A stretch of DNA of 64,000 bases from Calditrichota bacterium. GTDB lineage: Bacteria; Zhuqueibacterota; Zhuqueibacteria; JANLFK01; Oleimicrobiaceae. The stretch spans positions 662 through 64,661 of the forward strand of contig JACIZP010000177.1 of assembly GCA_014359355.1 (NCBI GenBank), given 5' to 3'. Below, one piece after another: positions 12,046-63,995 of this stretch (its first letter is position 1; every line of letters starts with the position of its first letter). The notes beneath the pieces were generated by a model, which was not told where the DNA came from, did no database searches, and saw only the letters and a list, made by a program, of their open reading frames with translations. Position numbers and translations under genes: made by a program.

Positions 12046-12090
12046 GGTCATTCTCCTGGGGTAGAGTCTACGGTTACCTTTCCTGAGCTG

Positions 12091-15000
12091 CTACATCTCC
12101 AGGCGCAGGCCCAGGTCGATGCGCCGCCGCTCGCCGTACCAGTGCGGGTGGTCATACTGCGTGCTGTACGCCGTACGGCTCATGGTCGGGCCGGGATCGG
12201 TCGGGCTGCCGGTCTCCGAATACACGGTGAGCACGTTCTTGCGGTCCAGGATGTTCCACACTCGTGCCACCAACGCGGCGCGCAGACGCCCGAACAGCAC
12301 AAAGTCCCGGCGGAACACCCCATCAAGCGTCATGCGCCACGGTCGCCGCGCGGTGTTAGGCTCCAGCGCCTGGCCGCCCACCGTCGGCGTGTAGGGGTAA
12401 CCACTGGAGCCGCGGAAGATAAACTGCAGCGTCGTGCGCTCAAACGGCCGCACACCAAAGATCTTCGGGCCTTGCCCTCTTCCCAAAGCGTAGCCAGCGT
12501 TGATGTCGATGACGTGGGTCTGATCCCATGGCATCAGGTACTCCTTCTTCGGCCGGTTCTCCTCGGTGTCACTGTCCCAGTACCCGGCCCAGGAGTAATA
12601 CTTGTTCGCCTTGGCCACAGAGTAAGTGTACTCCAAGGTACCGAAGTAGTTGTCACTGAAGCGCTTCTCCAAGCTGATGTCGATTCCCTTGGAGCTGCCA
12701 AAGTCGCTGTTGTGGATAATCGAGTAGCTGTAGAGCCCTAAGCTGTCCGGGTCAAAGCCGGTGATGCGGTAGCTCCCTGGGTCGCCGTTGTTCTCCTTGG
12801 CCCATGCCGCCACGCTCAGCTTCCAATTGTCGCCAATCTGCTGATCCACGCCCAGTTCATAGGCCTCAGTGCGCGCCGCATCCATATTGGCCCAGCCGAA
12901 CAACGGTAGGGGCGAGTTCAGGTTAAGGGTCTGGTTGGTGTACAGGTCCCGGTAGTCCGGCACCTGGAAGAAGTGGCCATAGGCAAAATGGAAGGTGGCC
13001 CGATCGGTGATCGGATGGCCAATGCCCAAACGAGGGCTCCACTGCCACTTCTTCCTCCCCGTCTGCACCTGCGAGGTGGGATCGTTCCAGTTTTCCCACG
13101 CCCGCCCTTTGGAATCGGCAAAGTCGAAGCGGATTCCGGCGTTGACGATGAGGTTTTCGAACTCCATTTTGTCCTGAATGTACGCTGAAATCTCCACGGG
13201 ATGGGTGTGGTAGTACTCCACATACGGGTTGGCAAGGTAGGGGTGCTGGAGTTCCAGGAAGAACAGGCCTCCGGATTCGCCACCTGCCAGCTTGCCAAGT
13301 AGGCTGTTCTTGTCAAAGCCGAAGGTCTTGTACTCGCCGCCAATCTTCACCTGGTGGCTGCGGTGCGCCTGCCAGGTGAGGCTGCCGGAGAGCTCGAAAT
13401 CCTGCTGGAAATTCCGCGTCCAGTACTGCGTAGTGTAACCGTAGTACACGTAGCGCGGCACCTGCACGCCATGTTCGGTGATGGTATCTACCCGGACGAA
13501 GGTAAGGTCGCACGCAAAACCACCGGTGGAAGTCCTGTCCGGGTATTCCTGTGGGGTCACCGGCCATTCGCGGGCGATCTGCTGGCGCCGGGCCTCGATC
13601 TCCGCATCGGTGGGCTTGCGACCGTTTTCCTTCTCGAACTGCTCGATCCACGTCTCGAGAAATGCATCCCTGAAGAGCTCCGAGTGGCCTGCGGTCAACT
13701 CGTGGCCATCCGGACCATACACGCGATAGCGGCGATGCTTCCAGAAACGTGAGCCGCGCAGCTCGTAAAAGAGCTTGGGGCTCACCTGGTGCGTCCAGAT
13801 CAGACCTTGCTGCTCAGTCTGGTCGGTGACGATGTGGATGCCCTGCTCGGCAAAGCGCCAGAAGTCGTCGAAGTAGCGGAACCGCCGCTGCGTCTGCCGG
13901 TGGGTGTAGACCAACTTCATGCTGGGGTTGATCCGCCAGGAGAGCTTGCCGGCAAAGTCATAGTCGGAGTTGAAGCCAAAAGCCATCCAGCCGGCAGTGT
14001 CGTCCCAACGAATCAGGTCGTTGATGCCGTCACCTTCGCCTGCGTCCTTGGTGTTCGGCTTGCGGTCCTCTCCCCAGTCGGCTTTCCAGGACCACGCCTT
14101 CCGCCAGGCGCCGGTGGCCCAGTGCCGCATCACATCGCCGACGTAGCGGTAGGTGCTGTTGTTGCGCAACTTGTTGATGTCGGTTACTTCCGTGATGATC
14201 CCTGCGTCGATCTGCTCCTGGATCTTCTTGTAGCGAGGATCCTCGGGATGGTCCAGGAGCCAATTGAGCGGTGTCGGGTCGTAAGTGTACTGGTCGTACT
14301 CCAGCACCGTGTACTTGCGGTAGCCCTGTGAGCCAGAAAGGAAGAAGCTCAGTCCCTTAACAAACGGCACCGGGCCGCCAAAGGAGCCGATGACCTGGTG
14401 GGCGTTGCGCAGGTCGTCGCTCTTGGAGCCCAGCCAGCCCGCCACCTCGCCGCTGGTCACCTCCGCCATGCCGGAGTAGTAGTCGCGCCCCTCTTTGGTG
14501 ACGATGTTGACCACCGCCGATTGCGCCTCGCCGTACTCCGCGTCAAAGTTGCCGGTGATGACCGTCAGCTCATCGATGGCCTCCCGGTTGACCGTGGTCC
14601 CCATGCCGGCGTAGATGGCATCTTCCACGTACATCCCGTCCACCATGTAGGCGATCTGGCCACTTCTGCCGCCGCGCACGTGGGTTTGGTCAAGGCCGCG
14701 CGCCTCAAAGCCGGCGATCTTGTTCTGGTAGCCTTCCATGACGGTGATACCCGACTGCAGGGTCATGATGTCCTGCACCGAGCGCACGGGCATGTTGGTG
14801 ATCATCTCCGCCGTGACCGTGGTGCGCTTGGTGGTGACCGAAGGCTCGATGAGCGGCCGCTCTGCTGTCACCTCCACGGCCTTGCCCAAGTCGATCACCG
14901 TGGGGCTGAGCTCAAAGTTGATCTTAGTGGTCAGGTCAACGCTCACCCGCACACCGGTAACCGTCTCCCGCTGATAGCCGATCATGGAAGCCGTTACCCG

Positions 15001-15225
15001 ATAGACGCCAGGCCGCACGTTGATGATGAAGTAGTAGCCGTCAGCGTCGGTTGCTGCCCCCATCTTCGTGCCCTCGATGAACACGTTGGCACCGGGCAGG
15101 GGTTGGCCCGTTTCCTTGTCCTTTACGAACCCGGCGAGCTTGCCTGTGGTGCCAGCAAACAGCGTCACCGGCACTGCCAGCACCAGGGCGAGAGCCAGGG
15201 CCAGGACTACCTGTGCGCGTTTCAC
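12091..15225 (-). CDS. TonB-dependent receptor, SusC/RagA-like (CarbopepD_reg + plug + barrel)
   Basis: GTG start 15225 preceded by AGGAGG RBS; signal peptide; 'GKLAGFVKDKETGQPLPGANVF...DGYYFI' carboxypeptidase-regulatory-like domain; TonB plug (ITGNFDAEYGEAQSAVVNIVTKEG); ~1045 aa typical of SusC-like receptors; C-terminal residue is M rather than the usual F. Confidence 0.75.
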   Translation of the reverse strand: MKRAQVVLALALALVLAVPVTLFAGTTGKLAGFVKDKETGQPLPGANVFIEGTKMGAATDADGYYFIINVRPGVYRVTASMIGYQRETVTGVRVSVDLTTKINFELSPTVIDLGKAVEVTAERPLIEPSVTTKRTTVTAEMITNMPVRSVQDIMTLQSGITVMEGYQNKIAGFEARGLDQTHVRGGRSGQIAYMVDGMYVEDAIYAGMGTTVNREAIDELTVITGNFDAEYGEAQSAVVNIVTKEGRDYYSGMAEVTSGEVAGWLGSKSDDLRNAHQVIGSFGGPVPFVKGLSFFLSGSQGYRKYTVLEYDQYTYDPTPLNWLLDHPEDPRYKKIQEQIDAGIITEVTDINKLRNNSTYRYVGDVMRHWATGAWRKAWSWKADWGEDRKPNTKDAGEGDGINDLIRWDDTAGWMAFGFNSDYDFAGKLSWRINPSMKLVYTHRQTQRRFRYFDDFWRFAEQGIHIVTDQTEQQGLIWTHQVSPKLFYELRGSRFWKHRRYRVYGPDGHELTAGHSELFRDAFLETWIEQFEKENGRKPTDAEIEARRQQIAREWPVTPQEYPDRTSTGGFACDLTFVRVDTITEHGVQVPRYVYYGYTTQYWTRNFQQDFELSGSLTWQAHRSHQVKIGGEYKTFGFDKNSLLGKLAGGESGGLFFLELQHPYLANPYVEYYHTHPVEISAYIQDKMEFENLIVNAGIRFDFADSKGRAWENWNDPTSQVQTGRKKWQWSPRLGIGHPITDRATFHFAYGHFFQVPDYRDLYTNQTLNLNSPLPLFGWANMDAARTEAYELGVDQQIGDNWKLSVAAWAKENNGDPGSYRITGFDPDSLGLYSYSIIHNSDFGSSKGIDISLEKRFSDNYFGTLEYTYSVAKANKYYSWAGYWDSDTEENRPKKEYLMPWDQTHVIDINAGYALGRGQGPKIFGVRPFERTTLQFIFRGSSGYPYTPTVGGQALEPNTARRPWRMTLDGVFRRDFVLFGRLRAALVARVWNILDRKNVLTVYSETGSPTDPGPTMSRTAYSTQYDHPHWYGERRRIDLGLRLEM

Positions 15226-15254
15226 TGCCGCGGCCTCCTCTGTTTGGTGAAAAA

Positions 15255-15270
15255 AAAAGTTGCAACTTTT
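15255..15270. promoter_or_regulatory. Perfect 16-bp palindrome AAAAGTTGCAACTTTT in the TBDR leader (candidate operator)
   Basis: Self-complementary sequence 15-30 nt upstream of the receptor RBS; a second half-site copy GAAAAGTTGCAATTCC lies at 15476-15491 next to a putative -35. Confidence 0.4.
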
Positions 15271-15300
15271 TCCCCATCTGCTGCGTCTTAAAGGTGTGCC

Positions 15301-15358
15301 AAAACAAAAAGGGCGGTCCTCTCCCCTGGATCCTTGCGCGGATTTCGGGAGACCGCCC
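15301..15358 (-). terminator. Strong intrinsic terminator/attenuator hairpin inside the TBDR upstream region
   Basis: Minus strand: GGGCGGTCTCCC-20 nt loop-GGGGAGAGGACCGCCC followed by TTTTTGTTTT; lies between a sigma70-like promoter (15444-15471) and the receptor start, or alternatively terminates the upstream operon ending at 15605. Confidence 0.55.
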
Positions 15359-15443
15359 CCTGGCTTCTGGCACAACGGGCTATTGGCATGGGTCTGGCAG
15401 CTCCTGCTAATAGCCTTTTCTTTTCTGGGGGTTTCTATGCCGT

Positions 15444-27451: not shown

Positions 27452-27535
27452 TACACGCTGTGAAGCGGGTGGGATGAACGGTATCGGTCGTCACTCTCTG
27501 CTTCAGGGGCACAACCATAAGCAGTGGAGGCTGAG

Positions 27536-30500
27536 ATGGCAGCGAAACGGATACAGGCCAGCACGCTGATCGGAGTTGGTCTCCTCCTGTTCTATACGAC
27601 AGCGGCGGTTGCACAACAGGGCTCCATAGGTAACAGGGCTACCGCCGACCCCGCGTACACCGGGTATGCAGCTTGGATCAAGCTGACCGTGGCGGGGCCC
27701 GCAGGGAACAATTCTCTCAACGACAACTTTGCCGGTGCGAAGGTCGAGATTGACCTGAATATCGACGGCGACAACAATGAAGCCACCAACCCTGGCGACG
27801 TGTACGAAGCCAGTGGCGACGCCGGAGAAATGGTGACTGACCCGCTTGGCTCCGGCGGCGCCTTTGACCAGTACTTCTACGTGCGCATCAAATCCGGCGC
27901 GAACAACCCGTTCCCGGATGGAGTAGGTTACGACACCGACCTCCGTCCGCGCGTGAAATTTGCCGCCAGCGGGTTTCTGCGTGTGGGTGGGGTGCCGATA
28001 CAGACCGAGACCGGCTTTGTGAACGCCACCGACGACATCACCCCCAGGATGCGCAAAATCGAGCACTATGACGACGGTACAGGTCATATGCCCGGTTCTC
28101 CTGGCAATCAGGTGCAGTACGACGGCTACATTGACAAGATCATCATCGAGTGGAGCGAGCCCATGCGCACCAGCAATGTGGCCGCCAGCACAGCCATCTT
28201 CGGTGGCCTCGGCTCCTCGGTGAGCAGCATTGAAGCTACCGGTGCGTGGGCCGACAACAAGCATTTTGTCATGTGGCCCGTGTCCATTTCGCCGAACTCC
28301 GGCATCACCCCAACCCTGTCCTATTACCCCCCACCCAGCAACAGCGACAAATTTGCCAGCGCAACTTTGCAGTACGCCGAGACGCATGCCAAGGTGGTGA
28401 CCGACCGCTCCGGCCCGGCGATTGTCAGCGCGCAGACCAAGCGCGCCACCCGGCGCCAGGCCTTGGCTGCAGCGCTCGCGGCCAAGCGCATCCGCGTGGT
28501 CTTTAGCGAGCCGGTGGCCTTCAACTACATCCAGGGTACTGACTTTACCGTGACCATCAACGGCGTCAACAACCCGGTGGCCAGCATCGTCTCGCCCACC
28601 ACCGCAAACCCACCGACCAATACGTACGAATTCGCCCTGACCAACGACTTTGTCCACGAGGATGTGACCGGAAGCATCTCCTACACGGGGACGATGCTGG
28701 TGCGCGACGTCAGCCCCGACAGCAACTACAACGGCGTGGGGCCCACAAGGACAATCACCGACGGTATTCTCCCCAACATTGTCTCCGTGCGTACCGTTGA
28801 CGGTCTCTCGGCCACCAATGCTGGCGCCAATGGCTGGGGTTACTTGGACTGGGTGGAGGTCACCTTTGACCACACTTACAACGGCATGGACCAGGCCCGC
28901 CTCAGCACTTTGGGCTTCACCGTCACTGGCACCGGTATATTGACCATTGGCGCCACCGGCAGTTGGGCCAGCGCCACCACGTTCCGCATTCCTTTGGTGG
29001 CCACTTCCCCGAAGGTGCCTAATACTGACCTTGTGCCCACGGTGACCTATGTCAACCCGGGGTCGACTACCGGTTTGCGGAGCGCCGTCAACAACGGGTT
29101 GGCCGAGAACTTGCTGGCAACCGATGTGACACCATCCTCGGAAAATGCCTCGCCCGTGCAGATTATCGACGGTGCCGGCCCAGCCCTCATCGAAGCTTAC
29201 ACTGCTGGTGGCAACAGAATCAGGCTCACGTTCAGTGAGAAGGTCAACACGGCCGGTTGGCCCACCACCGAACCGGCCGCCCAGGTGCCTTCCCGCTTCA
29301 AGTGGTTCGTCGGCCTGCGGAACTTTAGTGCGGCCGGAACCAAGGTCTTTTTCACCGGGCTCTCTGGCACCAATCAGGACAATGTCATCTACCTGAACAG
29401 CACCGGGGCCACCTGGACAAAGACCGATAGCGGCTTCGTCAACTTTTATGGGACCAACGTCGTCTACGACGTCGCCACCCCTGCTAACGGGAACCTGCAG
29501 TGGGACGACGACGGCTCCATAGTCGGCTTCACCGGGACCACTTCCGACGTCAAAGTGAAACGTGACAACATCGCCCCTATCCTCCTTGGTTTGTACACGC
29601 AGGACTTTGACGCCGACGGGACGTTAGATCACTACCGCTTCGTGTTCGATCCTCTGTCTCCCATCTTCCCGAAGACGTCGTTCAAGGCGGCAAACTGGAC
29701 GATTGCAGGCTATGACGGACCGAAGTCGGGCATCAGCCTGAACATGAACGTCTACAATCCGGCACACGCGCAGTACAAACCCACGGCCATCAACACCTTT
29801 GGCGATACGGTGGAGGCATACATCTCGTTCAACGAGACTACGGCTGGTGGCCCACCTGCCACCCCGTATGGCGGTGACACAGGGGATGTGCCGGACGTAA
29901 TTGTAGAAGCTGGAAAGGGCTTCGCGGACTGGGCCGACAATGTGATGGCCGCCTTGGGCGAGGGCCTCTCCTTGGAGAGCGATAAGGCTGGCCCGGCCAT
30001 CATGAGCGCCAAGACCATCTCTACAACCACCGTGGAAATCCTCATGAGTGAAAAGGTCCAGGGACTGGACTTGGCCGACTTTGACCTCACCATGGGTTTT
30101 GTCCCGCCGCTGGCCTCGGTGACCCAACCCAGCGACGCTCGTGTGCTGCTGACCGTCGCCCCTTACGCCCAGTGGGCACCCACGCAGACGGGCACCGTTC
30201 GCCTGACCGGGGTCAACAAGATCTATGACGATATCGCCGGCACTAACAACGGCAACATGCAGACTGCCTCCATCGCCGTGATCGATGCCACGGCCAGTTA
30301 CTTCATAGTCAGCCAAGTCTACAAGGAGGGGTCGCAGTTCACCGGTGTGCCGTTTGACATCAAAGTTATCGCCAAGGATTCCCACGGTACCACTGACGTG
30401 AACTTTACGGTACCCATCCAGTTCGCTGCCAACAAGCAGCGGGTGACCCTCCCGACCGGCGTGCAACGCCTGACCAACGGCGAAGGGGTGTTCCAGATCG

Positions 30501-31981
30501 TCTGCTATGACACTACCTCGAACTTGGTGATTACGGTCTACAAGACCACCGATCCCGGGGTGAACGGCTCAACTGAGCCAATAGAGGTGGTGGAAGCGGT
30601 GATCGACGCACCCAACACGCTCACCGTGAAGGACTACAAGGGTGCCGACGGCGAGGGGGACCAGGGTGGTTATGTGACGCTGGTCTGGGACTTTTCGCAG
30701 AACCATCCTGGCATCGGTACGGTCAACATTATCGACTACTACCAGATCTACCGCGTGGTCGAGGGCAAGCTCTTCCATTGGGGCACCGTGCAAGCGACTG
30801 ACCCGCGAAAGAGCGAGGCGGACTCGGTGCGCGTGGTGGTGCCCACCTATGACAATGTGATCTCGGACTTTTACGTGCAGGCTGTCAAGAATCCTCCCCC
30901 GCTCACGGCTGCGGCCCCGCTCTTGCCTGATGAGGACGCCATCCCGCTGCCGGCGGGGTACGTGTTTGCCATGCCGCCGAAGGGCGACAATGGCGAGGTG
31001 ACTGTCGCTGCCGCCATGACTGCTGGGCAGTTGGTGTCGCCGCTCACCAAGGGCACGGGTGGCGCCACTGACGACATCCCGCCGGCAGCCATCACCGAGG
31101 CGGCTATTCGCAAGATTAGTGCGCAGGCGAAGCTGTTCTGGCCAAAGGTCACCAAGGGCATCGATGGCTCGCCGGAGCGTTCGCGGATTACCTATCGCGT
31201 GTATGCGCACCCCAGCAATGCCTTCTTTAACGTTGGAGACCCGGACGCGGTACTTCTGGGTAGCTGCGCAGATACCTTCTTGGTGGTGAACGTCGATGCC
31301 TTGCGGCGGTTCTACATGGTGGTGGCCATGGACGACAACAACATGTCCGGCCCCTCCAACCGCGTCGGCCATTACGGCTTTGCCTTGAACAAAGGCGAGA
31401 CGCGCAAATACACGCACATCTCGCTGCCGCTGATCGATCCGAACATCACCGACGCCAAGTCATTAGCCGCCAGCATCGGCGGTGTGGCTGCGGTGTACAA
31501 GTTGGACCCAGCGACCAACGCCTACACCACGTACTGGCTGCCAGATATGGGTTTGGGCACCAACTTCCCCATCACCCCTGGCATGGCCTGCTTGGTCAAC
31601 CTGAAGAGCGACGCACCCAGCACCTGGTTCATGGTGGGGTCGGTGCCGTACCCAGGCAGCGTTCGTTTCACGCTGGCCAAGACCAAGACGCGTACCTACA
31701 ATGAGATCAGCGTGCCGCTTGACCGTCTGACCCTGACCAACGCCGCACAGCTGGCCGCCAGCATTGGCGGCGTGGAGGCGCTCTACCGGATCGACCCGGC
31801 TACCAACGCCTTCACGCAGTATTGGCTCGTGGCTCAGGGCTTGGGCACGAATTTCCCCTTGAACCCAGGCGAACCGGTGCTCCTGTTGGTGAACCAGTCG
31901 GCTCCCAATCAGTGGCCGGCAGGCAGCATGACCGCTGCGCTCCCTGTGGGCGAACAGCCTGCGGGCGCAAAGGAAGAATGA
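27536..31981 (+). CDS. Giant secreted surface protein (1481 aa) with Ig-like/beta-rich repeats and C-terminal tandem ~90-aa repeat
   Basis: GGAGG RBS 6 nt before ATG 27536; signal peptide (LIGVGLLLFYTTAAVAQQ); Thr/Gly/Asn-rich beta-strand composition; last ~190 aa contain two copies of ISLPLxxxxLTxAxxLAASIGGVxAxYxxDPATNAxTxYWLxxxGLGTNFPxxPG; no T9SS CTD. Confidence 0.6.
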   Translation: MAAKRIQASTLIGVGLLLFYTTAAVAQQGSIGNRATADPAYTGYAAWIKLTVAGPAGNNSLNDNFAGAKVEIDLNIDGDNNEATNPGDVYEASGDAGEMVTDPLGSGGAFDQYFYVRIKSGANNPFPDGVGYDTDLRPRVKFAASGFLRVGGVPIQTETGFVNATDDITPRMRKIEHYDDGTGHMPGSPGNQVQYDGYIDKIIIEWSEPMRTSNVAASTAIFGGLGSSVSSIEATGAWADNKHFVMWPVSISPNSGITPTLSYYPPPSNSDKFASATLQYAETHAKVVTDRSGPAIVSAQTKRATRRQALAAALAAKRIRVVFSEPVAFNYIQGTDFTVTINGVNNPVASIVSPTTANPPTNTYEFALTNDFVHEDVTGSISYTGTMLVRDVSPDSNYNGVGPTRTITDGILPNIVSVRTVDGLSATNAGANGWGYLDWVEVTFDHTYNGMDQARLSTLGFTVTGTGILTIGATGSWASATTFRIPLVATSPKVPNTDLVPTVTYVNPGSTTGLRSAVNNGLAENLLATDVTPSSENASPVQIIDGAGPALIEAYTAGGNRIRLTFSEKVNTAGWPTTEPAAQVPSRFKWFVGLRNFSAAGTKVFFTGLSGTNQDNVIYLNSTGATWTKTDSGFVNFYGTNVVYDVATPANGNLQWDDDGSIVGFTGTTSDVKVKRDNIAPILLGLYTQDFDADGTLDHYRFVFDPLSPIFPKTSFKAANWTIAGYDGPKSGISLNMNVYNPAHAQYKPTAINTFGDTVEAYISFNETTAGGPPATPYGGDTGDVPDVIVEAGKGFADWADNVMAALGEGLSLESDKAGPAIMSAKTISTTTVEILMSEKVQGLDLADFDLTMGFVPPLASVTQPSDARVLLTVAPYAQWAPTQTGTVRLTGVNKIYDDIAGTNNGNMQTASIAVIDATASYFIVSQVYKEGSQFTGVPFDIKVIAKDSHGTTDVNFTVPIQFAANKQRVTLPTGVQRLTNGEGVFQIVCYDTTSNLVITVYKTTDPGVNGSTEPIEVVEAVIDAPNTLTVKDYKGADGEGDQGGYVTLVWDFSQNHPGIGTVNIIDYYQIYRVVEGKLFHWGTVQATDPRKSEADSVRVVVPTYDNVISDFYVQAVKNPPPLTAAAPLLPDEDAIPLPAGYVFAMPPKGDNGEVTVAAAMTAGQLVSPLTKGTGGATDDIPPAAITEAAIRKISAQAKLFWPKVTKGIDGSPERSRITYRVYAHPSNAFFNVGDPDAVLLGSCADTFLVVNVDALRRFYMVVAMDDNNMSGPSNRVGHYGFALNKGETRKYTHISLPLIDPNITDAKSLAASIGGVAAVYKLDPATNAYTTYWLPDMGLGTNFPITPGMACLVNLKSDAPSTWFMVGSVPYPGSVRFTLAKTKTRTYNEISVPLDRLTLTNAAQLAASIGGVEALYRIDPATNAFTQYWLVAQGLGTNFPLNPGEPVLLLVNQSAPNQWPAGSMTAALPVGEQPAGAKEE

Positions 31982-50070: not shown

Positions 50071-53000
50071 CTACAGTCGGCCAGCCAGAACCACCGTGGC
50101 TCTGGCGGTTTCCACGGTACCGGCTGCGGCGTTGAGCGCTTCCAGGTAGACGATGTACACCCCGATACGTGCCTGCTGGCCATGATCGTCCCTGCCGTCC
50201 CACACCACCGCATTGGAGGCGGCCACCGGCTGGTTGCTCGCTAAGAAGCGAATGAGGCGGCCGGTGACATCGTAGATCTTGACGTTCACGGCAGCCGTGG
50301 TCATCGGCAAGGCGAACGAGATGACGGCAAAGTCGTCGCGCCCGTCGCCATCTGGCGAAAAGGGCGAGGGCGAGACGCTGAGCGTGGTGCGCGGCGGTAC
50401 CACCATGGTGAGGACGCTGTTGGCACGGCCTGGCGTCCCCCCGGTCTTGTCCACGCACGAGCTCCAATTGGACTTCAGCTGCGAAGGCAGGCTTGGGTTG
50501 ATTCTTTCGAGCGAGACGCCCGTATCTCCGCCCCAGCTCTGGTCGTAGGCCACACTGTCGATGACCGTGCCCTGGGGGTCGTAAACGACCACGGCGTCGC
50601 CAGTCGCGGAGAGCGCAGGCCATGAGGGTACTACCAGCAGCAGACTTTCGCCGAGCTCGCCCGCCTTTGCTAAGGAAGAGTCTTCGGCAAGCAGCACAAA
50701 GCCGCCGGGCGGCACGAGCAAGAGATTGCTGCTCACCACCCGGCGCTTGGCCAGGTCCGCATCGGAGAAGAGCCACTTCTCCAAGTTTACTGCCGCCTCG
50801 CTGCGATTGTACAGCTCCACCCACTCGCCCATGCCGCTGAGCGGCGCGTACATGATCTCGTTGACCACCAGCGTCCCCCTGGCAAAGCCCACCATCAGTT
50901 CAGCCACGGCGATGTTGTTGGCCGGCCTCATGTCGCCTGCACAGGTCACCAGCACGCCGATCCACATGACGCCAGCCGGGGCTTCGCGCCATTCCACCTC
51001 CACCGACCGGCACTCATCAGGGGCCAGTTGTGCTATGTCGACCGGTTCCCCCAGTCGCTCGCCCGGCGCAAATACCGTATCCCGGTTGGCGTCCCAGAAG
51101 AACTCCACCCGCACGTGCTCGGCGGGCGCCCGACCTTCGTTGCACACCTGGGCCTGAAGCCGCACGCTTTCGCCAACACGAGGTTGCTCGGGGAGGAAGG
51201 AAAGCCCGGCACCAGCCACACCAACGTCCACCGTCAAGGGGCTCACGCTGTTTTCTGTCCCAGGGGTGGCTCCTTCGGGGGCAGTGCTCAGCCGCCAGTT
51301 GGCGCTGTCCTGCGAGCCCCACTCGTAGCGCACCCGCTCCAGGGAAACGCCAGTGCGCATCCCCCAGCGAGAAAAGTAGTGCACGCTGTCCACCACCACG
51401 CCCGCGGGGTCGTACACCCGCACCTCATCCTGGTCATTGTTGAGCGCGGCCCACCCCTGCTTCACTGTCAGCAGGGGCGCAGGAAGCTGGCCGTACTGGA
51501 AGCGCACTACAGAATCGGCGGCGACCACCGCAAAACCACCCACTGGCACGCGCACGTGGGTGGTGCCGAAAAGCCGCGGACCGGAAGTGGCATCGCCCAG
51601 TCCCCAGCCGTAAAGGTCCACCTCGCTAGGTCCGGCATTGTAGAGCTCAACCCACTCACTCTGCCCGGAGAAGGGTGCGTACATAATCTCATTGACCAGC
51701 ACCTGCCCCACGGGAAAGGCCACCACCAATTCCGCGAAACGGCGGTCATTGTCCGGCCGCTGGTCATTTGGGCAGCTCGCCGCCACTGCGATGCTGTGCA
51801 CTCCTGGCGGCACTCCTTCCCAGCGGAAGAGCAAGGTCTGCTTCGCGCCACTGGCCAACTCGCCCACCACCTGTGGCGCATCCAGCCGTTCCGCAGCCGT
51901 CAGCACGGAGTCGCCGTCTGCGTCCCAGTAGCAGCTCACCTCCACGCCGGCCACCGCCTGGCGGCCTACATTGCGCACTGCCGCAGCGATCGTCACCGAT
52001 CCCTGCGCACGAGGCACAAACGGCGCCCACTGAATCGACCCCGCCACCACCTCGACGTCCACCGCCAGGGGACTCACGCTGTTCTCCAGGCCTGGCGTTC
52101 CGCCGCGTGCGTTCACCGCAGCACGCCAATTGCTGGGCAGGTTGGACGGCTCTTCCGCGCGCACCCGTTCCAGGGACACGCCTGTTCGCACCGGCCCCCA
52201 AGAAGCAGCATAAGCCACGCTGTCGATGGTTGCCCCTGTCAGATCGCGAACAACCACCAGGTCGGCGTCGTTGTTGAGGGTCGGCCATTTGCTGCCGATC
52301 GTCAGCAACAGGCCGCCAAATTCCGGAAAGTCCCTCTTCATCGTCGTGTCTTTGGCCACGACCAGGTACCCGCCTGGCGGTACCACGATGTGGCGGTCGG
52401 TGAGGCGCACCAGTGTTCCGACGTTCTCGTCGCTCACCGTCCAGTCATAGACGTCCACACCGCTGTCACGAGGGTTGAATAGTTCTATCCACTCGCACGC
52501 GCCGGACTGGGGTTGGAACATGATCTCATTGATGATGAGGTCTCCGCTCTGGAAAGGCACGCGATACTCCCCGTACGCCATGTCGTCGGAGGTGTCAGGA
52601 TCCGCCACCTCAACCAGTCGAGCAATGATGCGGCTGAGCCCAGGGGCAGCGGCTCCCAGCTCGACGCTGCACAGCAAAGAGTCGCCGCCTGCCAGGCCCG
52701 CCAAGGGACAGGAGAGGCCCACCAGCTCCTGCGCGCCGGGCTTGAGGTCATAGTCCGCGTCGCGATAGAAGGCGACCATGCCGCTCTCCGCCGTATCCAT
52801 GCCGTGATTGTAGACCCACACCGAGGCGCGGACCGTTTGCCCATAGCGAGGCTGTGGCGGCTCAAACTGCACCCCGGCAGAACCAAGTCCAACATGCTTG
52901 TCGCGCGGACGGATGCTATTCGGGGCATTGGGCGTACCGCCCAACGGCGCCCGGCAGGGACCCCAGTTCTTGCGACTGTTGGTTGGCCAGTCTGGCCTCA

Positions 53001-54312
53001 CCCGCTCTATGGACACGCCCGTCTCGCCACCCCAAGAGGCGAAGTAGTACAGGCTGTCCACCGAAAAGCCTGCGGCATCCCAAATCACCACTGCATCGCT
53101 GGTGTTGTTAAGAGCAGGCCAGCCCCGTCCCGGCACAAACACCGGGCCGGACAAAGTGGGAAAGAGCGCCCGAACCAGGGTGTCCTCTGCGAGCAGGGCG
53201 AAGCCGCCAGGAGGGAGGAGCGCCTTTGTGCTGGTGACCGTAACTCGTGTAGCAGTGCGGGAATCGCTTAGCGACCACAGCCGCAGGTCGATCACCTCCG
53301 GGCTGCGGTTTAGGATCTCCACCCACTCGGGCTCCCCTGCACTTGGCCGGTACATGACTTCGTTGACCACCACCTCGCCGGGCCACACGCCGACGCCAAG
53401 GGTCACCCTCTGCTGGTCGTTCTCCGCGGAGCTGTCGCCTTCGCCCACCACCCGCGCAAGTAGCTGGTGCACTCCAGCCGGCACCTCATGCCAGGTGAAC
53501 CGTGCCACCGCACTGTCGCCTGGCTGCAGAGAGGGGCTGACAAACGGCGCTTCCAGGAGTTCCTCTTCCCTGCCGAAACCGTCCTCGTCGCGATCCAAGT
53601 ACAGGGCAATCTGGCAGCTGGCGATTTCCTTGCGGCCGGCGTTCAGCGCGACCACCGTAAGCTGAACGCTCTGGCCGCGTCGGACACGAGACGGCGACCA
53701 GACCACGCTCTTGAGCGCCAGGTCTATGGCTCCCGCGCTCACGCTGTTGGGCGCGCCAGGCGTACCCCCGAGCACCCGGCTGTTCGCCCAGTTGGCAGGT
53801 GCGTCGCCGGCTTCGAGATCGATCTTCTCGTCAGAGTACCCCTGAGGGTTGTCCAGGGTGTAGCGATAGCGGCTCACCGTGTCGCCCCTGGCGTTGGTGA
53901 GAATCACCGGTTCGGGAATGGTGTTTGACCACCCGCCGCTGCCAAAGGCGCCGTCGTCAATTTTCACAATCAATGCTTCGGCAGGGATGACGCCGTCGTA
54001 GGTGGTGGAGTTGCCGAAGTAGCTGCCGTCGAGGATGACGGCGAACTGCCGCGGCCGGAGGATGAGCCCCCACCCTGCGTCGATAATCTTGTCCAACTCG
54101 ATGCTGTCGCCAACGGCCCAACCGGCGAGGTTCACAGAATCCGTCGCACTGAGGTTGAATATTTCCACGTACTCGTCGTGGGCCTCGTTGGTGGCGGGAT
54201 CGAACATGACCTCTGACACGGTCACCTGCCCCAGGCTGCGACCTGGGCTTGCGGCCAAGATAAGGAAGGCTCCAATAACGAAGAAGCGGCGATAAAACTT
54301 TGACTCAGCCAC
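50071..54312 (-). CDS. Giant secreted protein with five lamin-tail domains (LTD) alternating with CARDB/Ig-like domains and C-terminal FlgD-Ig-like domain
   Basis: GTG start 54312 with purine-rich RBS (ORF track extends upstream into purA region); signal peptide; five repeats of NE(I/V)M(F/Y)xPxxGxxEW(I/V)ELxN...D(L/V)xxWxLxD...PPGG(F/Y)xV...ALNNxxDxVxxxDxxGxxxDSVxY...WG...GVSLERV; C-terminal 'PFSPDGDGRDD...VKIYDVTGRLIR' FlgD-Ig-like. Confidence 0.7.
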   Translation of the reverse strand: MAESKFYRRFFVIGAFLILAASPGRSLGQVTVSEVMFDPATNEAHDEYVEIFNLSATDSVNLAGWAVGDSIELDKIIDAGWGLILRPRQFAVILDGSYFGNSTTYDGVIPAEALIVKIDDGAFGSGGWSNTIPEPVILTNARGDTVSRYRYTLDNPQGYSDEKIDLEAGDAPANWANSRVLGGTPGAPNSVSAGAIDLALKSVVWSPSRVRRGQSVQLTVVALNAGRKEIASCQIALYLDRDEDGFGREEELLEAPFVSPSLQPGDSAVARFTWHEVPAGVHQLLARVVGEGDSSAENDQQRVTLGVGVWPGEVVVNEVMYRPSAGEPEWVEILNRSPEVIDLRLWSLSDSRTATRVTVTSTKALLPPGGFALLAEDTLVRALFPTLSGPVFVPGRGWPALNNTSDAVVIWDAAGFSVDSLYYFASWGGETGVSIERVRPDWPTNSRKNWGPCRAPLGGTPNAPNSIRPRDKHVGLGSAGVQFEPPQPRYGQTVRASVWVYNHGMDTAESGMVAFYRDADYDLKPGAQELVGLSCPLAGLAGGDSLLCSVELGAAAPGLSRIIARLVEVADPDTSDDMAYGEYRVPFQSGDLIINEIMFQPQSGACEWIELFNPRDSGVDVYDWTVSDENVGTLVRLTDRHIVVPPGGYLVVAKDTTMKRDFPEFGGLLLTIGSKWPTLNNDADLVVVRDLTGATIDSVAYAASWGPVRTGVSLERVRAEEPSNLPSNWRAAVNARGGTPGLENSVSPLAVDVEVVAGSIQWAPFVPRAQGSVTIAAAVRNVGRQAVAGVEVSCYWDADGDSVLTAAERLDAPQVVGELASGAKQTLLFRWEGVPPGVHSIAVAASCPNDQRPDNDRRFAELVVAFPVGQVLVNEIMYAPFSGQSEWVELYNAGPSEVDLYGWGLGDATSGPRLFGTTHVRVPVGGFAVVAADSVVRFQYGQLPAPLLTVKQGWAALNNDQDEVRVYDPAGVVVDSVHYFSRWGMRTGVSLERVRYEWGSQDSANWRLSTAPEGATPGTENSVSPLTVDVGVAGAGLSFLPEQPRVGESVRLQAQVCNEGRAPAEHVRVEFFWDANRDTVFAPGERLGEPVDIAQLAPDECRSVEVEWREAPAGVMWIGVLVTCAGDMRPANNIAVAELMVGFARGTLVVNEIMYAPLSGMGEWVELYNRSEAAVNLEKWLFSDADLAKRRVVSSNLLLVPPGGFVLLAEDSSLAKAGELGESLLLVVPSWPALSATGDAVVVYDPQGTVIDSVAYDQSWGGDTGVSLERINPSLPSQLKSNWSSCVDKTGGTPGRANSVLTMVVPPRTTLSVSPSPFSPDGDGRDDFAVISFALPMTTAAVNVKIYDVTGRLIRFLASNQPVAASNAVVWDGRDDHGQQARIGVYIVYLEALNAAAGTVETARATVVLAGRL

Positions 54313-54365
54313 TGCCCTTCTCCCCGCTCGTGCTGAACGGTAGCTGGTCTGTAGCGATGATGCGA

Positions 54366-55640
<1,275 letters not shown>

Positions 55641-59275: not shown

Positions 59276-59304
59276 AATATAGACCATTCCCACCTAAAAG
59301 TCAA
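59276..59304 (-). promoter_or_regulatory. Sigma70 promoter TTGACT-17-TATATT for secD-secF-STAS operon
   Basis: Minus-strand -35 at 59304..59299, 17-nt spacer, -10 at 59281..59276, ~80 nt upstream of secD ATG, between citF stop and secD. Confidence 0.55.
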
Positions 59305-59325
59305 ACGGAAAAAGGCGAGGCCGGC

Positions 59326-60876
59326 TCACGTCTTCGGCACCAGCTGGCGCACTGCGTCGATGATTGTACCATCCCGAAACTCGATGAGCGCCACGATGCG
59401 CTCGGTGAACGTGGGCTTTTCCGGCTGCCCTGTCATGTCGATCGCCATGCGGTAGAGCTTGTCGATGGGCACGATGGGCAGACTGCTCCGCTTCAAGCGC
59501 TGCAGCAGGTCTTTCCGCCGTGGGTTGATGGCAATGCCGCGCTCGGTGACCACCACGTCGATCATCTCGCCTGGCGCAGTAACGGTCACCACCTTGTCCA
59601 CGATGATCGGCACCCGCCCACGCACCAGCGGCGCGGTGATGATGGTGACCTCTGCGTCGGCGGCGTCTGTGAACCCGCCGATGCCGTGCAGCAACCACCC
59701 GTCGGAGTGGGTGTTCACGTTGACGTTGAAATCAAGGTCGATTTCCGTGGCACCCAGCACCGAAACCTTGACCATCTGGGCAAAACAACCCTTGGTGTGG
59801 TAGTTGTAGGAGACGAAAGGATTGGTCTCGATGTGCCGCGGGTTGTCGCGCAGGGACTGCACTCCAGCCAAGTCAAAGCTCTGGCCGTCGAGAATGTAGC
59901 GGGTGAGGCCCTGGTTGAGCAGGTCCACCATGTACTGCGTCGATCCGCCTCGCACAAAATCGGCGACGACGCCGGCGCGGGCCATGTGCTCGGCCATGAA
60001 CTGCACGAACGCAAGGGAGACACCTCCGGCCCCAGCCTGAAAAGAGAAGTGCGGCTCGTGCATGATGCCGCTATCCACCACCAGCTGCGCGGCGTACTTG
60101 GCGATGAGCAGCCGCGTGGGGCTGCGCGTGATGACCGTGGTGCCGGAAACGATGCGCGCAGGGTCGCCGATGGCATCCACCTGGACGACATAGTCGACGT
60201 TGCCGCCCTGGATGCTCCATGGGTAACAGGGGAAGGGCACAAGGTTATCGGTGACCACCACCACCTTGTCGGCATAAAGGGAATCGGCCAAGGCAAAGCC
60301 GAGCGGGCCGCAGGCCGATTTGCCATAGACGCCGTTGGCGTTGCCGTGGGCATCGGCAGCCGGTGCGGCAATGAAGGCAACATCGATGTGCAGGTCGCCA
60401 TCCTGGATGGCGCGATAGCGGCCGCCGTGGGAGCGGAGCACGCACACGCTCTTCATCTTCCCCAACGAGCACGCCCTGCCCACCGGCCCGTTCATTGAGC
60501 CCTCCACGCGGCGCACCACGCCCTTTTCGATGTGGCGCACCAACGGCTCGTGGCAGGGGAAGAGCGCAGACGGGGCGACCACCAGGTCTTTGAGGCCTCT
60601 GCGCGCCAGCTTGTCCATGACCATGTTCACCACATAGTCGCCATCCCGCAAGTGGTGATGGAAGGAGACCGTCATGCCGTCCTTGATGCCGCAGGCATCG
60701 ATGGCGTCGTCCAGCGACTTGAGCAGTTTGTTGCGGTAGTCGCTGGCTGCACGAATCAGCGCGCCAGCAGTGCGTCCCCCACCTTTGTCGGCATGAGCCC
60801 CTTGGAATGGTCTAAGCTTTCTCCCTTCAATCTCTGTGGGCACTAACCGCCCAACGGCGTTCTCTACCAGGTCCAT
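59326..60876 (-). CDS. citF: Citrate lyase alpha subunit (citrate CoA-transferase)
   Basis: Start at MDLVENAVGRLVPTEIEGRKL; 'LDDAIDACGIKDGMTVSFHHHLRDGD' and overall ~516 aa match CitF family. Confidence 0.75.
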   Translation of the reverse strand: MDLVENAVGRLVPTEIEGRKLRPFQGAHADKGGGRTAGALIRAASDYRNKLLKSLDDAIDACGIKDGMTVSFHHHLRDGDYVVNMVMDKLARRGLKDLVVAPSALFPCHEPLVRHIEKGVVRRVEGSMNGPVGRACSLGKMKSVCVLRSHGGRYRAIQDGDLHIDVAFIAAPAADAHGNANGVYGKSACGPLGFALADSLYADKVVVVTDNLVPFPCYPWSIQGGNVDYVVQVDAIGDPARIVSGTTVITRSPTRLLIAKYAAQLVVDSGIMHEPHFSFQAGAGGVSLAFVQFMAEHMARAGVVADFVRGGSTQYMVDLLNQGLTRYILDGQSFDLAGVQSLRDNPRHIETNPFVSYNYHTKGCFAQMVKVSVLGATEIDLDFNVNVNTHSDGWLLHGIGGFTDAADAEVTIITAPLVRGRVPIIVDKVVTVTAPGEMIDVVVTERGIAINPRRKDLLQRLKRSSLPIVPIDKLYRMAIDMTGQPEKPTFTERIVALIEFRDGTIIDAVRQLVPKT

Positions 60877-60895: not shown

Positions 60896-62083
60896 TCAGT
60901 CGATAAGGCCAAGGGCCTTGGCCAATTGCAGCGTACGCTTTGCCCGTGCCACCACGGGCGCATCGATCATCTTTGTGCCGAGACTGGCGACACCCGCACC
61001 GCGGCGCTCTGCCTCCTCCAACGCAGCAATCACTTGCTGCGCATGCGCAATCCGCTCCGGAGTCGGCGCAAAGGCGCGATGGATGGGCTCAATCTGCGCT
61101 GGGTGGATGACCCCTTTACCTTCAAAGCCCAAGGCGATGGCCTCTTCTGTGCTCTTGACCAAACCGTCGACGTCGGCAACATCGGAGAACACGGTGTCGA
61201 TGGCCTGCACCCGTGCGGCCTTTGCCGCCAGCACCAGCAGGCTGCGCGCCACAAAGCTCTCCTTGCCCTCAACGGTGCGCTCTGCGCCGATGTCTGCGGT
61301 AAAATCCTCCGCTCCGAAGCAAAGGGCGACCACCCGCTGACTGGCAGAGGCGATCTGGTATGCGTTGAGCACGCCTTTGGCGCTTTCGATGAGCGGCATG
61401 AGCCAAATCTGATAGCGAAGGCGATGCTCTCTTTCGAGGGCAGCGACTCTCTCCTCGACCTCCAGCACGCTTTCCGCTGCCTCGCACTTGGGGATGAGGA
61501 TGGTATCAGGTTGGGCCGGTACCACCATCTCTAAGTCGGCTGCGCCAAATTCTGTGGCCAAGGGGTTGATGCGCACGATGCGCTCGGCAGCACCAAAGTC
61601 CACCGCCAGCAGGCTGTTGCGCACCAACACGCGGGCGGCCGCCTTGTCTGCGGGCGCTACCGAGTCCTCAAGGTCCAGAATGACGCTGTCCGCCCCAAAG
61701 AGTCCTGCGTTGAGCATCAGGTCTGGATTGTTGCCGGGCAGATAGAGGCGCGTGCGCCGTAGGCGATCTTTGGGTACCTGTCTCCGCTTGATCCGCCGCT
61801 CCGGCCAGACGCCCAGCCCTTCGACAGGCCAAAGGGCGCGCACCCCCGCCTCCACGCGAGCCTGAATGACGTGGTCTAAGGCGCCCCTGTCGTCTACCGT
61901 CAGGGAGGCATGACGCACGCCCAAAGCCTCGAGGGTAGAGAGAATGGTGGCACGGATTTGTTGGCCAAAGGTGCCCGCCACCGAGCTGACCAGGTCGAGC
62001 CGGATGCCACCGCGTGTCCGTCGCTCGATGGTCAGCAGCAGGTCGCTCTTGTCACTCCTTCCGACTTGGATCTTCTCTGCCAT
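60896..62083 (-). CDS. Fused citrate lyase acyl-carrier (CitD, gamma) + citrate lyase beta/citryl-CoA lyase (CitE) protein
   Basis: Residues ~10-85 'SDKSDLLLTIERRTRGGIRLDL...IRATILSTLEALGVRHASLTVDDRGALDHVIQARVEAGV' align with CitD incl. VDDKGALD block; residues ~110-395 'RRTRLYLPGNNPDLMLNAGLFGADSVILDLEDSVAPADKAAAR...' HpcH/HpaI-CitE fold; single continuous frame. Confidence 0.65.
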   Translation of the reverse strand: MAEKIQVGRSDKSDLLLTIERRTRGGIRLDLVSSVAGTFGQQIRATILSTLEALGVRHASLTVDDRGALDHVIQARVEAGVRALWPVEGLGVWPERRIKRRQVPKDRLRRTRLYLPGNNPDLMLNAGLFGADSVILDLEDSVAPADKAAARVLVRNSLLAVDFGAAERIVRINPLATEFGAADLEMVVPAQPDTILIPKCEAAESVLEVEERVAALEREHRLRYQIWLMPLIESAKGVLNAYQIASASQRVVALCFGAEDFTADIGAERTVEGKESFVARSLLVLAAKAARVQAIDTVFSDVADVDGLVKSTEEAIALGFEGKGVIHPAQIEPIHRAFAPTPERIAHAQQVIAALEEAERRGAGVASLGTKMIDAPVVARAKRTLQLAKALGLID

Positions 62084-62121
62084 ATGTTGTCCTCAACACC
62101 ACAGAGCCTCAACGATTCCGT

Positions 62122-62706
62122 TCACAACAAGCTGGTGACCAACTCCGCCTTGGGGGCTGGAATCACCACCTTGCGCATGAGCAAGCCCTTGCGCTGTACC
62201 ACTGCCGCGCCTGCCTCCACTGCCGCCCTGGCTGCCGCCACCTCTCCCGTGAGGGTCACGAACGACTTGCCGCCAAGTCCCACGGCCAGACGCACCTCGA
62301 TGAGGGTCACCTTGGCTGCCTTGGCCGCGGCATCGGCCGCTTGAATGCTGGAAGCAACCGAAAAGGTCTCGATGATACCCAGCGCCTCGACTTGTTCAAC
62401 TGCGGAGGTCGCGTTGATTGCCGGGAATACGCTCTGGTGGACGCGCGGCAGGACCATTTCGTCGACGACCGTTTCGCCACCTCTGGTCACGCCGGCGTTC
62501 ACGCTGCTCTGCACGGCGGCGACATCGCCACGCACCAGGCAGATATACTTGCCAGGGCAGACCGTCTTGGCCACCACCAGCTCCACCTCGCTCACCTTGA
62601 GCATGGCGTCGGCTGCCTCGATGCCCACGGCGATGCTGTTGAACTCCACCAGACCTATGCAGTCACGCGCCGCTTGCGTCATCATCCCTCTGCCACTTCG
62701 GTTCAC
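62122..62706 (-). CDS. Bacterial microcompartment shell protein, tandem BMC-domain (PduT-like BMC-T)
   Basis: Two BMC domains: 'IGLVEFNSIAVGIEAADAMLKVSEVELVVAKTVCPGKYICLVRGDVAAVQSSVNAG' and 'LGIIETFSVASSIQAADAAAKAAKVTLIEVRLAVGLGGKSFVTLTGEVAAARAAVEAGA'; conserved Cys in KTVCPGKY as in PduT (4Fe-4S site); start may be internal ATG 62682; GTGA overlap with upstream gene. Confidence 0.8.
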   Translation of the reverse strand: MNRSGRGMMTQAARDCIGLVEFNSIAVGIEAADAMLKVSEVELVVAKTVCPGKYICLVRGDVAAVQSSVNAGVTRGGETVVDEMVLPRVHQSVFPAINATSAVEQVEALGIIETFSVASSIQAADAAAKAAKVTLIEVRLAVGLGGKSFVTLTGEVAAARAAVEAGAAVVQRKGLLMRKVVIPAPKAELVTSLL

Positions 62707-63995
62707 GATGCTTCGATGCAGACCATTTCCTCATCCACTTCTGCCACACGGCCAGAGATGGAGGCGTGCACCCGGGCGCTCACCTCGTCTGGGTGGCAAT
62801 CGCCGATGAGTTGCCCAACAACTACCTGCTGGCCGCGCGTTACCACCGGTCGTGCTGGGGCCCCTGCGTGTTGCTTGAGGCGGATGCGCACCCGTTGCGG
62901 GGCCACGGCATCTTCCCAGTAGCGCGCCGGACGGGCATAGGGCGTGAGCTGGAACCGCCCCATCAAACGCGAGGTGGGAATGCGTCGACTGCCCAGGGGC
63001 ACGCGCGCCTTGGTCTCGCGTGGCGCGGGCGCCTGCACCCCTCCACTGCGCAGAGCACGCTTCAACTCCCTGTTCACCAGGCGCGGCGACAACCCCATGG
63101 GACAGGCGTATTCGCAGGCCCCGCACTCTGAGCAGAGCAGGGCCATGCGCGCCACCTCGCTTTTGGCATCCAGGCCCAAGGCCATAGTCCGCATCACTCG
63201 ATGCGGCTCCAAGTGGTGCCCCAGCAGGTAGCGATTGCACGTCTCCGTGCACAATACACACTGCGTGCAAGCAGACCTCGCGTTGCGCAACTGGTGGGCA
63301 ACGCTCTGCGTGCGCGCCTGGACGCAGGGGTGCGCCAAGGGGAGCATAATTACCGCCGCGGTGGTCTTGTCAATGGGGGCCTCGGGATCCGTGGTTAGCG
63401 TCCCCATCATGACCCCGCCCATGAAAAACGCGGGGGCTTCGCACTGCGTGCCGCCGCAGAGCGACAAGAGCTCCCGTACCGTGGTGCCCACAGGCGCACG
63501 CACCACCTTCGGCTGCTGCACACAGCCGCCCACCGTCAGGGTACGGTGCGTGACTGGCTCCCCTTGCCACGCAGCAGCCACATTCCGGAGCGTCTCCACG
63601 TTTTGCACCAGCACACCCACGTGGACCGGCAGCCCCCCTTCGGGCACTAGCCTCCCGGTGGCAAGGGCCACCACCTCATGCTCGTCACCCGCCGGGTAGG
63701 CGTCAGGAAGCTCGACTACCTCCACGCCCTCGCGCCACGCAGCAATCAAGTGCCGGTTCTTTTTCTTGAGAGCGATGGCGAGCCTCTGCGCACCTGTTGC
63801 CTGGGCGATGAGCCGCAGCCCCCTGAGCACTTGCTGCCCCTCGACCCGCAAGACCTCCTGGTCGTTGCACAGAAGAGGCTCACATTCCGCAGCGTTGGCA
63901 ATCACCCACTCCACCCGGTGGGCGAACTTGTGGTGCGTAGGAAATCCTCCGCCTCCACCGCCAACCACACCTGCAGCAAAGACCTTTTGCGCCAA
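62703..63995 (-). CDS. PduS-like RnfC-family flavoprotein with two 4Fe-4S ferredoxin motifs (5' end probably outside window)
   Basis: 'AAGVVGGGGGGFPTHHKF...VIANAAECEPLLCNDQ' (RnfC/PduS NADH-binding + SLBB), 'CTQCVLCTETC' and 'CSECGACEYACP' ferredoxin motifs; ORF reaches window edge. Confidence 0.7.
   Translation of the reverse strand: MAQKVFAAGVVGGGGGGFPTHHKFAHRVEWVIANAAECEPLLCNDQEVLRVEGQQVLRGLRLIAQATGAQRLAIALKKKNRHLIAAWREGVEVVELPDAYPAGDEHEVVALATGRLVPEGGLPVHVGVLVQNVETLRNVAAAWQGEPVTHRTLTVGGCVQQPKVVRAPVGTTVRELLSLCGGTQCEAPAFFMGGVMMGTLTTDPEAPIDKTTAAVIMLPLAHPCVQARTQSVAHQLRNARSACTQCVLCTETCNRYLLGHHLEPHRVMRTMALGLDAKSEVARMALLCSECGACEYACPMGLSPRLVNRELKRALRSGGVQAPAPRETKARVPLGSRRIPTSRLMGRFQLTPYARPARYWEDAVAPQRVRIRLKQHAGAPARPVVTRGQQVVVGQLIGDCHPDEVSARVHASISGRVAEVDEEMVCIEAS

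Follow-up and report, generated by a model that had tools for sequence, protein, structure and literature searches.

The citDE-citF locus

The stretch of DNA considered here, referred to as the window, comprises 64,000 nucleotides (nt) of a Calditrichota bacterium assembly (GCA_014359355.1, contig JACIZP010000177.1, positions 662 to 64,661), and the gene in question, citDE, encodes two citrate lyase subunits, the gamma-like carrier and the beta lyase, as one polypeptide. The original prediction, made from the sequence of this stretch, had described an uninterrupted frame of 395 amino acids (aa) in which a CitD-like module containing the block VDDRGALD is joined to CitE. This description holds: citDE is a single open reading frame (ORF) of 395 aa at 60896–62083 on the minus strand, as is confirmed in the sequence; VDDRGALD occupies residues 63–70, and in Pfam the protein is matched by PF06857 (ACP) at residues 4–82 (E 7.8e-20) and by PF03328 (HpcH_HpaI) at residues 110–328 (E 4.4e-61). 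A ribosome-binding-site-like GAGGA, read from the sequence (62090–62094, minus strand), stands 6 nt upstream of the ATG, and the N-terminus cannot be longer because an in-frame stop sits only 3 codons before that ATG. A protein 100% identical to that of the window (P0001) carries the name 'citrate lyase acyl carrier protein [Calditrichaeota bacterium]'.

The carrier (CitD/ACP-like) module spans residues 1–85 (61829–62083, minus strand) and is matched, besides PF06857, by the NCBIfam citD model TIGR01608, whose positions 10–83 fall without gaps onto residues 8–81 and whose score of 68.1 bits lies above the cutoff of 63.5. A linker of residues 86–106 (61766–61828, minus strand), free of Pfam coverage, leads to the CitE module, a citryl-thioester oxaloacetate-lyase of residues 107–395 that ends with the stop codon (60896–61765, minus strand; PF03328, TIGR01588). 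Within the family the carrier residues G8, K12, D14, S33, D65, G67, R76 and E78 are invariant, the CitE motifs LEDS, VRIN, IES, GAED and MID are invariant across homologues, and G91 and P94 of the linker are nearly so.

The next gene is citF (59326–60876, minus strand), which codes for the citrate lyase alpha subunit, a citrate CoA/ACP-transferase (CoA, coenzyme A; ACP, acyl carrier protein) of 516 aa. Its product starts MDLVENAVG, 19 nt after the citDE stop, a start set to match that of the 516-aa orthologue from a related locus (L001). It is matched by PF04223 (E 4.8e-161) and by TIGR01584 with a score of 582.9, above the cutoff of 501.45. CitF was also detected in 68 of 80 related loci, which were fetched from the at least 438 matching species genomes. 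Identity to the E. coli proteins is 42% for CitD, 39% over 293 residues for CitE and 47% for CitF, and the order of domains and genes, D-E-F, is the same as in E. coli.

A basic residue at the attachment-serine column

In E. coli CitD, Ser14 of the motif G-T-L-E-S-[SG]-D is the residue that we take, from work on E. coli and K. pneumoniae, to carry 2'-(5''-phosphoribosyl)-3'-dephospho-CoA. In pairwise alignment this serine falls on Lys12 of the window protein (codon AAG, 62048–62050, minus strand), within the motif G-R-S-D-K-S-D; the alignment is ungapped from G10 of E. coli (G8 of the window) to S35 (S33 of the window), and the coordinate ranges of the Pfam and NCBIfam hidden Markov models (HMMs), both ungapped, agree with it. 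Ser10 and Ser13 exist in the window protein, neither of them in the Ser14 column. The original prediction had read the N-terminal segment as including the serine of the prosthetic group and had proposed HMM alignment as a check; such alignment returned both domains but put a lysine in the serine's place, and that part of the description has to be given up.

The lysine is present in all 118 full-length close homologues, followed by Gly in 58, Ser in 56 and Asn in 3, a variation which indicates that Ser13 is not a conserved feature. When the carrier module alone was used in an exhaustive search and the 150 best cluster representatives were tabulated, the column held Ser in 53, Arg in 60 and Lys in 21. 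The 53 Ser-type representatives have the canonical GTLESSD and are nearly all short stand-alone proteins; those of the 150 that run on into a detectable CitE are all of the Arg or Lys type, except for one Ser-type fusion (P0167). Stand-alone Lys/Arg forms of CitD occur too, for example in Treponema pedis. A set of 81 alignable fused proteins was tabulated from the window, related loci and the species loci: 66 of them read RSD and 10 read K-x-D, the column being occupied by Lys or Arg in 77 and by Ser in 2. In fusions further removed from the window protein, which make up the sister clade to the Lys type, the column holds Arg. In the Arg-type motif, R-S-D-C, the Ser directly after the replaced position is nearly invariant and the Cys widely conserved; in the Lys-type motif, K-[S/G/N]-D-[L/I], neither is conserved.

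That Lys and Arg are interchanged among orthologues argues, at the level of sequence comparison, for a charge role of the basic residue rather than a covalent modification of the lysine. A lipoyl- or biotinyl-like modification of Lys12 at the hairpin tip was considered and rejected for this reason, and also because no ligase gene lies nearby. A literature search, with much of the older literature outside its reach, found no paper discussing a serine-less CitD. The replacement of the serine is the interesting feature of citDE.

The CitE part was placed in a simple neighbour-joining tree with a midpoint root and no support values. Both fused clades, the Lys type with the window protein and the Arg type, are separated by the root from the canonical enzymes, as is a stand-alone form with Arg; the canonical clade itself includes T. 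pedis, whose Lys-type CitD stands alone, and P0167, the Ser-type fusion. From these placements serine loss and fusion each seem to have arisen at least twice; the loss in T. pedis looks independent because its CitE groups with the canonical enzymes. The clade of the window protein takes in Calditrichota/KSB1, Krumholzibacteriota, Ignavibacteria, Bacteroidales, Planctomycetota and others. The P0167 fusion (L089–L092, metagenome contigs) has the motif GSTDSND and also looks independent. Its neighbours are genes for a LysR regulator, Iso_dh and an aconitase-like protein. Its contigs, of 6.5 kb or less, are too short to show helper genes, and it was dropped as a control for them.

Helper genes

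Citrate lyase is the textbook case of an enzyme with a unique covalent CoA-like cofactor and three dedicated helper enzymes. The genes citG and citX, for cofactor synthesis and attachment, and citC, for acetylation, normally lie within the citrate lyase operon (PMC10798043, PMC3832036, PMC2996986). None of the three was found in the 64-kb window by Pfam searches of the called genes and searches with the E. coli proteins, nor in the 20-kb neighbourhoods of three relatives (L001–L006, reached through P0004, P0020 and P0117) by precomputed Pfam annotation. Likewise, neither small profile HMMs nor phmmer queries with the E. coli proteins detected any of them in the 80 species loci, whose flanks total 1.0 Mb and extend at least 5 kb upstream in 58 loci and at least 5 kb beyond citF in 46. 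The same searches find citC, citX or citG genes in all three Ser-type controls with enough flank, namely E. coli (L008, citCDEFXG), L098 (citD-citE-citF-citXG) and L100 (citC and citX, then citD-citE-citF-citX-citG).

Predicted structure

An AlphaFold2 model of the citDE protein, built on 64 homologues, is confident throughout (pLDDT 93.9, pTM 0.90). The carrier module is modelled with four strands and two helices, a fold of the MdcC/CitD type whose secondary structure fits the published description of MdcC (PMC5534430), and Lys12 lies in the loop between strands 4–8 and 15–21. The linker is included in the confident part of the model, and its pLDDT of about 91 suggests that it is probably packed and not a free tether; together with the pTM this suggests, as far as the model goes, a carrier module that is docked rather than swinging.

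MdcC, the carrier of malonate decarboxylase (PDB 5VIT/5VJ1), resembles the window's carrier in its PF06857 domain, its type of fold and the place of its attachment residue, Ser25, in a loop between antiparallel strands (PMC5534430). It differs in that Ser25 carries the prosthetic group, for which MdcB and MdcG are needed. A sequence search of the PDB found no CitD structure, and a search with the CitD profile reached MdcC no better than at E 1.3. Foldseek turned up only CitE-like lyases. Among solved structures, the CitE module comes closest to CLYBL and the malyl-CoA lyases, all of which act on free CoA esters. No true CitE structure exists (PMC3832036).

A proposed free-CoA mechanism and the holo-enzyme alternative

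With modest confidence, we infer that the citDE protein and CitF together form an ATP-independent citrate lyase that would act on free acetyl-CoA and citryl-CoA, and in which the carrier module would remain as a docked part with a structural or CoA-binding role. In a first step CitF would form citryl-CoA from citrate, with free acetyl-CoA as the CoA donor and acetate as the other product, and in a second the CitE module would cleave citryl-CoA to oxaloacetate and acetyl-CoA. Since acetyl-CoA would be used catalytically, CitG, CitX and CitC would be dispensable. The carrier module probably has a function because it is strongly conserved and modelled as docked; as a structural or adaptor part it might, most simply, serve assembly with CitF, the binding of a CoA phosphate, or both, the conserved basic residue possibly gripping a phosphate of free CoA at the site of the former covalent link. 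The lost serine, the lack of helper genes nearby and the free-CoA-ester lyases as nearest structures are consistent with the use of free CoA. Older biochemistry is consistent with it too: Dimroth and Eggerer are said to have reported in 1975 that acetyl-CoA and citryl-CoA serve as substrates when the alpha and beta subunits are isolated, and Buckel et al. reportedly found in 1973 that deacetylated citrate lyase cleaves citrate when given acetyl-CoA.

Several points weigh against this proposal. Next to Lys12 the window protein has Ser13, a position at which Ser is invariant in the Arg-type clade (RSDC), and the attachment site could conceivably have shifted there. CitF is a normal, equivalog-level protein, and nothing obvious in it points to a different acyl acceptor. 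That Ser14 is the attachment site is taken from work with E. coli and K. pneumoniae and from the homologous Ser25 of MdcC (PMC5534430), whose profile match is weak. The searches for helper genes covered only the local 10-kb flanks and the 64-kb window.

The main rival is a conventional holo-citrate lyase, in which the cofactor would sit on Ser13 (K-S-D), placed there by CitX and CitG encoded elsewhere, CitC would acetylate it, and the fusion would only tether the carrier. This we regard as rather unlikely, yet as carrying a real probability because the searches were local and the Arg-type clade keeps its invariant serine (the 66 RSD proteins). Ser13 is present in the closest relatives as well as in the window protein, and the carrier module, well conserved, passes the citD equivalog cutoff. 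The serine does not, however, appear to be required, given that the Lys-type proteins have Gly in its place about as often as Ser. Furthermore, no accessory genes were found in the local neighbourhoods of 80 or more loci, although they cluster with citDEF in the three Ser-type controls and in published operons, and they are missing even from a T. pedis citrate-fermentation cluster that is otherwise complete.

Genomic context and substrate

The T. pedis cluster (L093/L094) consists of a GntR regulator, a 2HCT citrate transporter, four oxaloacetate decarboxylase genes (alpha, gamma, biotin carrier and beta) and citD-citE-citF, and no citC, citX or citG was found in it. T. pedis is a cultured organism. 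Its CitD (WP_024469094) is of the Lys type, with the motif GSTEKSD, and resembles the window protein both in the lysine at the serine position and in a citD-citE-citF set lacking citC, citX and citG; it differs in being a separate protein of 94 aa and in clustering with a citrate transporter and oxaloacetate decarboxylase. A deltaproteobacterial Arg-type citD-citE-citF stands behind TctCBA, also in the absence of the three helper genes. These transporter and decarboxylase contexts argue for citrate as the substrate.

In the Arg-type fused loci (L013–L088; examples are L014, L022, L054, L069, L029, L057, L071 and L085) citDE-citF is part of a conserved cluster, with isocitrate dehydrogenase in 30, a small HD-domain protein in 34, aconitase in 25 and a PrpD/MmgE-family gene in 15; the HD-domain protein always follows isocitrate dehydrogenase. 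Such surroundings point to a function in the citrate branch of the tricarboxylic acid (TCA) cycle rather than in classical citrate fermentation. In Bacteroidales loci, genes for methylmalonyl-CoA epimerase, carboxyltransferase and OAD-beta lie upstream.

It had been suggested in the original prediction that the protein might instead be an ACP-tethered lyase, citryl/malyl-CoA-lyase-like, of different specificity. On such a reading the carrier would be fused to a lyase whose acyl thioester is not citryl but malyl-, citramalyl- or itaconate-derived, paired with a CitF-like transferase that also differs in specificity. The CitE module does fall short of the equivalog cutoff of the citE model TIGR01588, which matches residues 107–392 over the full length of the model with 316.6 bits against 443.4, and it also scores 194.7 bits with RipC; CLYBL and malyl-CoA lyases are its closest solved structures, and PrpD/MmgE is a frequent neighbour in the Arg-type clade. 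Among the models tried, however, citE is the best by far, CitF passes the citF equivalog cutoff, and the structural comparison is bounded by the lack of any true CitE structure (PMC3832036). The neighbours in relatives, moreover, are citrate-specific in sense: the 2HCT transporter with oxaloacetate decarboxylase, TctABC, aconitase and isocitrate dehydrogenase. A different specificity is thus improbable, and citrate is retained as the substrate.

Distribution and reality of the fusion

The CitD-CitE fusion is common and already published, and is not new. From 7560 relatives in a large protein collection, the 120 best clusters (58–100% identity) all have the PF06857 and PF03328 architecture, and they are drawn from NCBI, JGI, ENA and Logan assemblies. 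With each species represented by one genome, a relative was found in at least 438 genomes from more than 10 phyla, and citD and citE are fused in all 80 of the loci fetched. These come from Calditrichota, KSB1, Ignavibacteria, Melioribacteraceae, Bacteroidales, Cloacimonadota and Planctomycetota, and further from Acidobacteriota, Anaerolineales, Krumholzibacteriota, Gemmatimonadota, WOR-3 and others. The database search for the same fusion that had been proposed along with the original prediction was in this way amply answered, the fusion being present in no fewer than 120 protein clusters and 438 species genomes.

The fusion is genuine, and an assembly artefact is excluded because the same in-frame junction recurs in independent assemblies. 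Although citD and citE overlap by 4 nt in the annotated E. coli genome, so that a single error (a lost stop codon or a frameshift) could join two separate genes, the chance that this happened here is negligible in view of the conserved linker and the RLRRTRLYLPGNNPD start of CitE, kept in frame in all homologues (at least 120 clusters and all 80 loci), the confidence with which the linker is modelled, and the base composition at the three codon positions of citDE, which is typical for window genes.

A CitE-CitD fusion was described in 2012 for Ignavibacterium album IALB_1147 (Liu et al. 2012, PMC3362086), where with CitF (IALB_1146) it was interpreted as an ATP-independent citrate lyase with a possible part in citrate fermentation or in a reverse TCA cycle; that paper is silent on the missing serine and the accessory genes. 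IALB_1147/IALB_1146 and the window genes have the same fused architecture in the same two-gene unit. The Ignavibacteria or Ignavibacteriales loci examined, a set to which IALB_1147 does not belong, include six with a readable motif; all six are of the Arg type with R-S-D-C and five stand in the cluster of Iso_dh, HD, aconitase and PrpD, in contrast to the window, which is of the Lys type and lacks these neighbours.

The original prediction had treated the fusion as a departure from separate citD and citE genes and had suggested that a fused carrier could alter the stoichiometry of the complex. Given the frequency of the fusion and its earlier description, the first of these views does not stand. 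As for the second, the classical citrate lyase complex is equimolar, alpha6 beta6 gamma6 (1:1:1), so the fusion need not alter the ratio of subunits, and changed stoichiometry was rejected as an explanation. Fusing the two genes would be a small step because those of E. coli already overlap. Being common, published and without effect on the 1:1 subunit ratio, the fusion by itself is of little weight.

Relation to known enzymes

By its domains and gene order, with PF06857 at the N-terminus, PF03328 at the C-terminus and citF following, citDE belongs with the CitD-CitE fusions of the IALB_1147 type, and with its alpha, beta and gamma modules the locus belongs with the ATP-independent citrate lyases (CitDEF, EC 4.1.3.6). 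All three modules are homologous to those of the classical citrate (pro-3S)-lyase of K. pneumoniae and E. coli, and the D-E-F order and the expected overall reaction are the same. The differences are that D and E form one polypeptide in the window, that a lysine replaces the attachment serine, and that citC, citX and citG are not nearby, in contrast to the classical operon citCDEF(X)G; the serine and the helper genes in the operon are two defining features of the classical enzyme that citDE lacks. Citryl-CoA lyase, malyl-CoA lyase, human CLYBL and M. tuberculosis CitE, the free-CoA CitE-like lyases, share with the window protein the TIM-barrel fold and the metal and substrate motifs, and they cleave free CoA thioesters, which is the chemistry proposed for the CitE module. 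They have neither a carrier module nor a CitF partner, however, and act mostly on malyl-, citramalyl- and methylmalyl-CoA. The presence of a conserved carrier module sets citDE apart from such stand-alone lyases.

More broadly, and only tentatively, the Lys/Arg-type CitD, fused or free, may mark a class of citrate lyase without a prosthetic group, which would hold ordinary acetyl-CoA non-covalently, the basic residue standing in for the covalent phosphodiester link, and dispense with CitC, CitX and CitG. In many anaerobic phyla this class would be the common form of citrate lyase. In Arg-type lineages it would be built into operons for aconitase and isocitrate dehydrogenase; there it could supply the citrate branch of the TCA cycle or draw from it, with the flow going either way. 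If this is true, genome-based metabolic models that call the pathway incomplete or that require citC, citX and citG would be wrong for Bacteroidales, Ignavibacteria, Planctomycetota, KSB1/Calditrichota, spirochaetes and others. The enzyme would need only catalytic acetyl-CoA, which would change its regulation and make heterologous expression easy, and the carrier fold would have a second way of working that involves no covalent bond.

Other genes of the window

Directly upstream of citDE lies a gene for a tandem-BMC PduT-like shell protein (62122–62682, minus strand) that keeps the cysteine in KTVCPGK, preceded by one for a PduS/RnfC-like flavo-iron-sulfur protein with an RnfC_N domain at its C-terminus (62703–63995, minus strand). 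The four genes look like one operon because the gaps between them are 20–40 nt and no terminator was found. The PduS/PduT-like pair occurs in the window and in a close KSB1 relative (L001/L002) and is absent from the other 86 citDE loci, for which reason a functional tie of the citrate lyase to these microcompartment genes was rejected; no other microcompartment genes were seen in the 64-kb window. At the citF stop, a consensus scan picked out a terminator-like hairpin (59315–59329, minus strand), which probably marks the end of the transcription unit, judging from sequence. A promoter-like site, likewise a matter of consensus matches only (10 of 12), lies after the hairpin and before secD-secF (59276–59304).

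The window also holds three very large ORFs (27524–31981, plus strand; 8947–12051 and 50071–54513, both minus strand). No Pfam match was found for the ORFs of 1485 aa and 1034 aa, the latter of which adjoins a TonB-dependent receptor at 12091–15375. A protein of 1480 aa has five lamin-tail domains together with CARDB and FlgD_ig; it is encoded downstream of citF-secDF-STAS and occupies the same position in the relatives L001 and L003.

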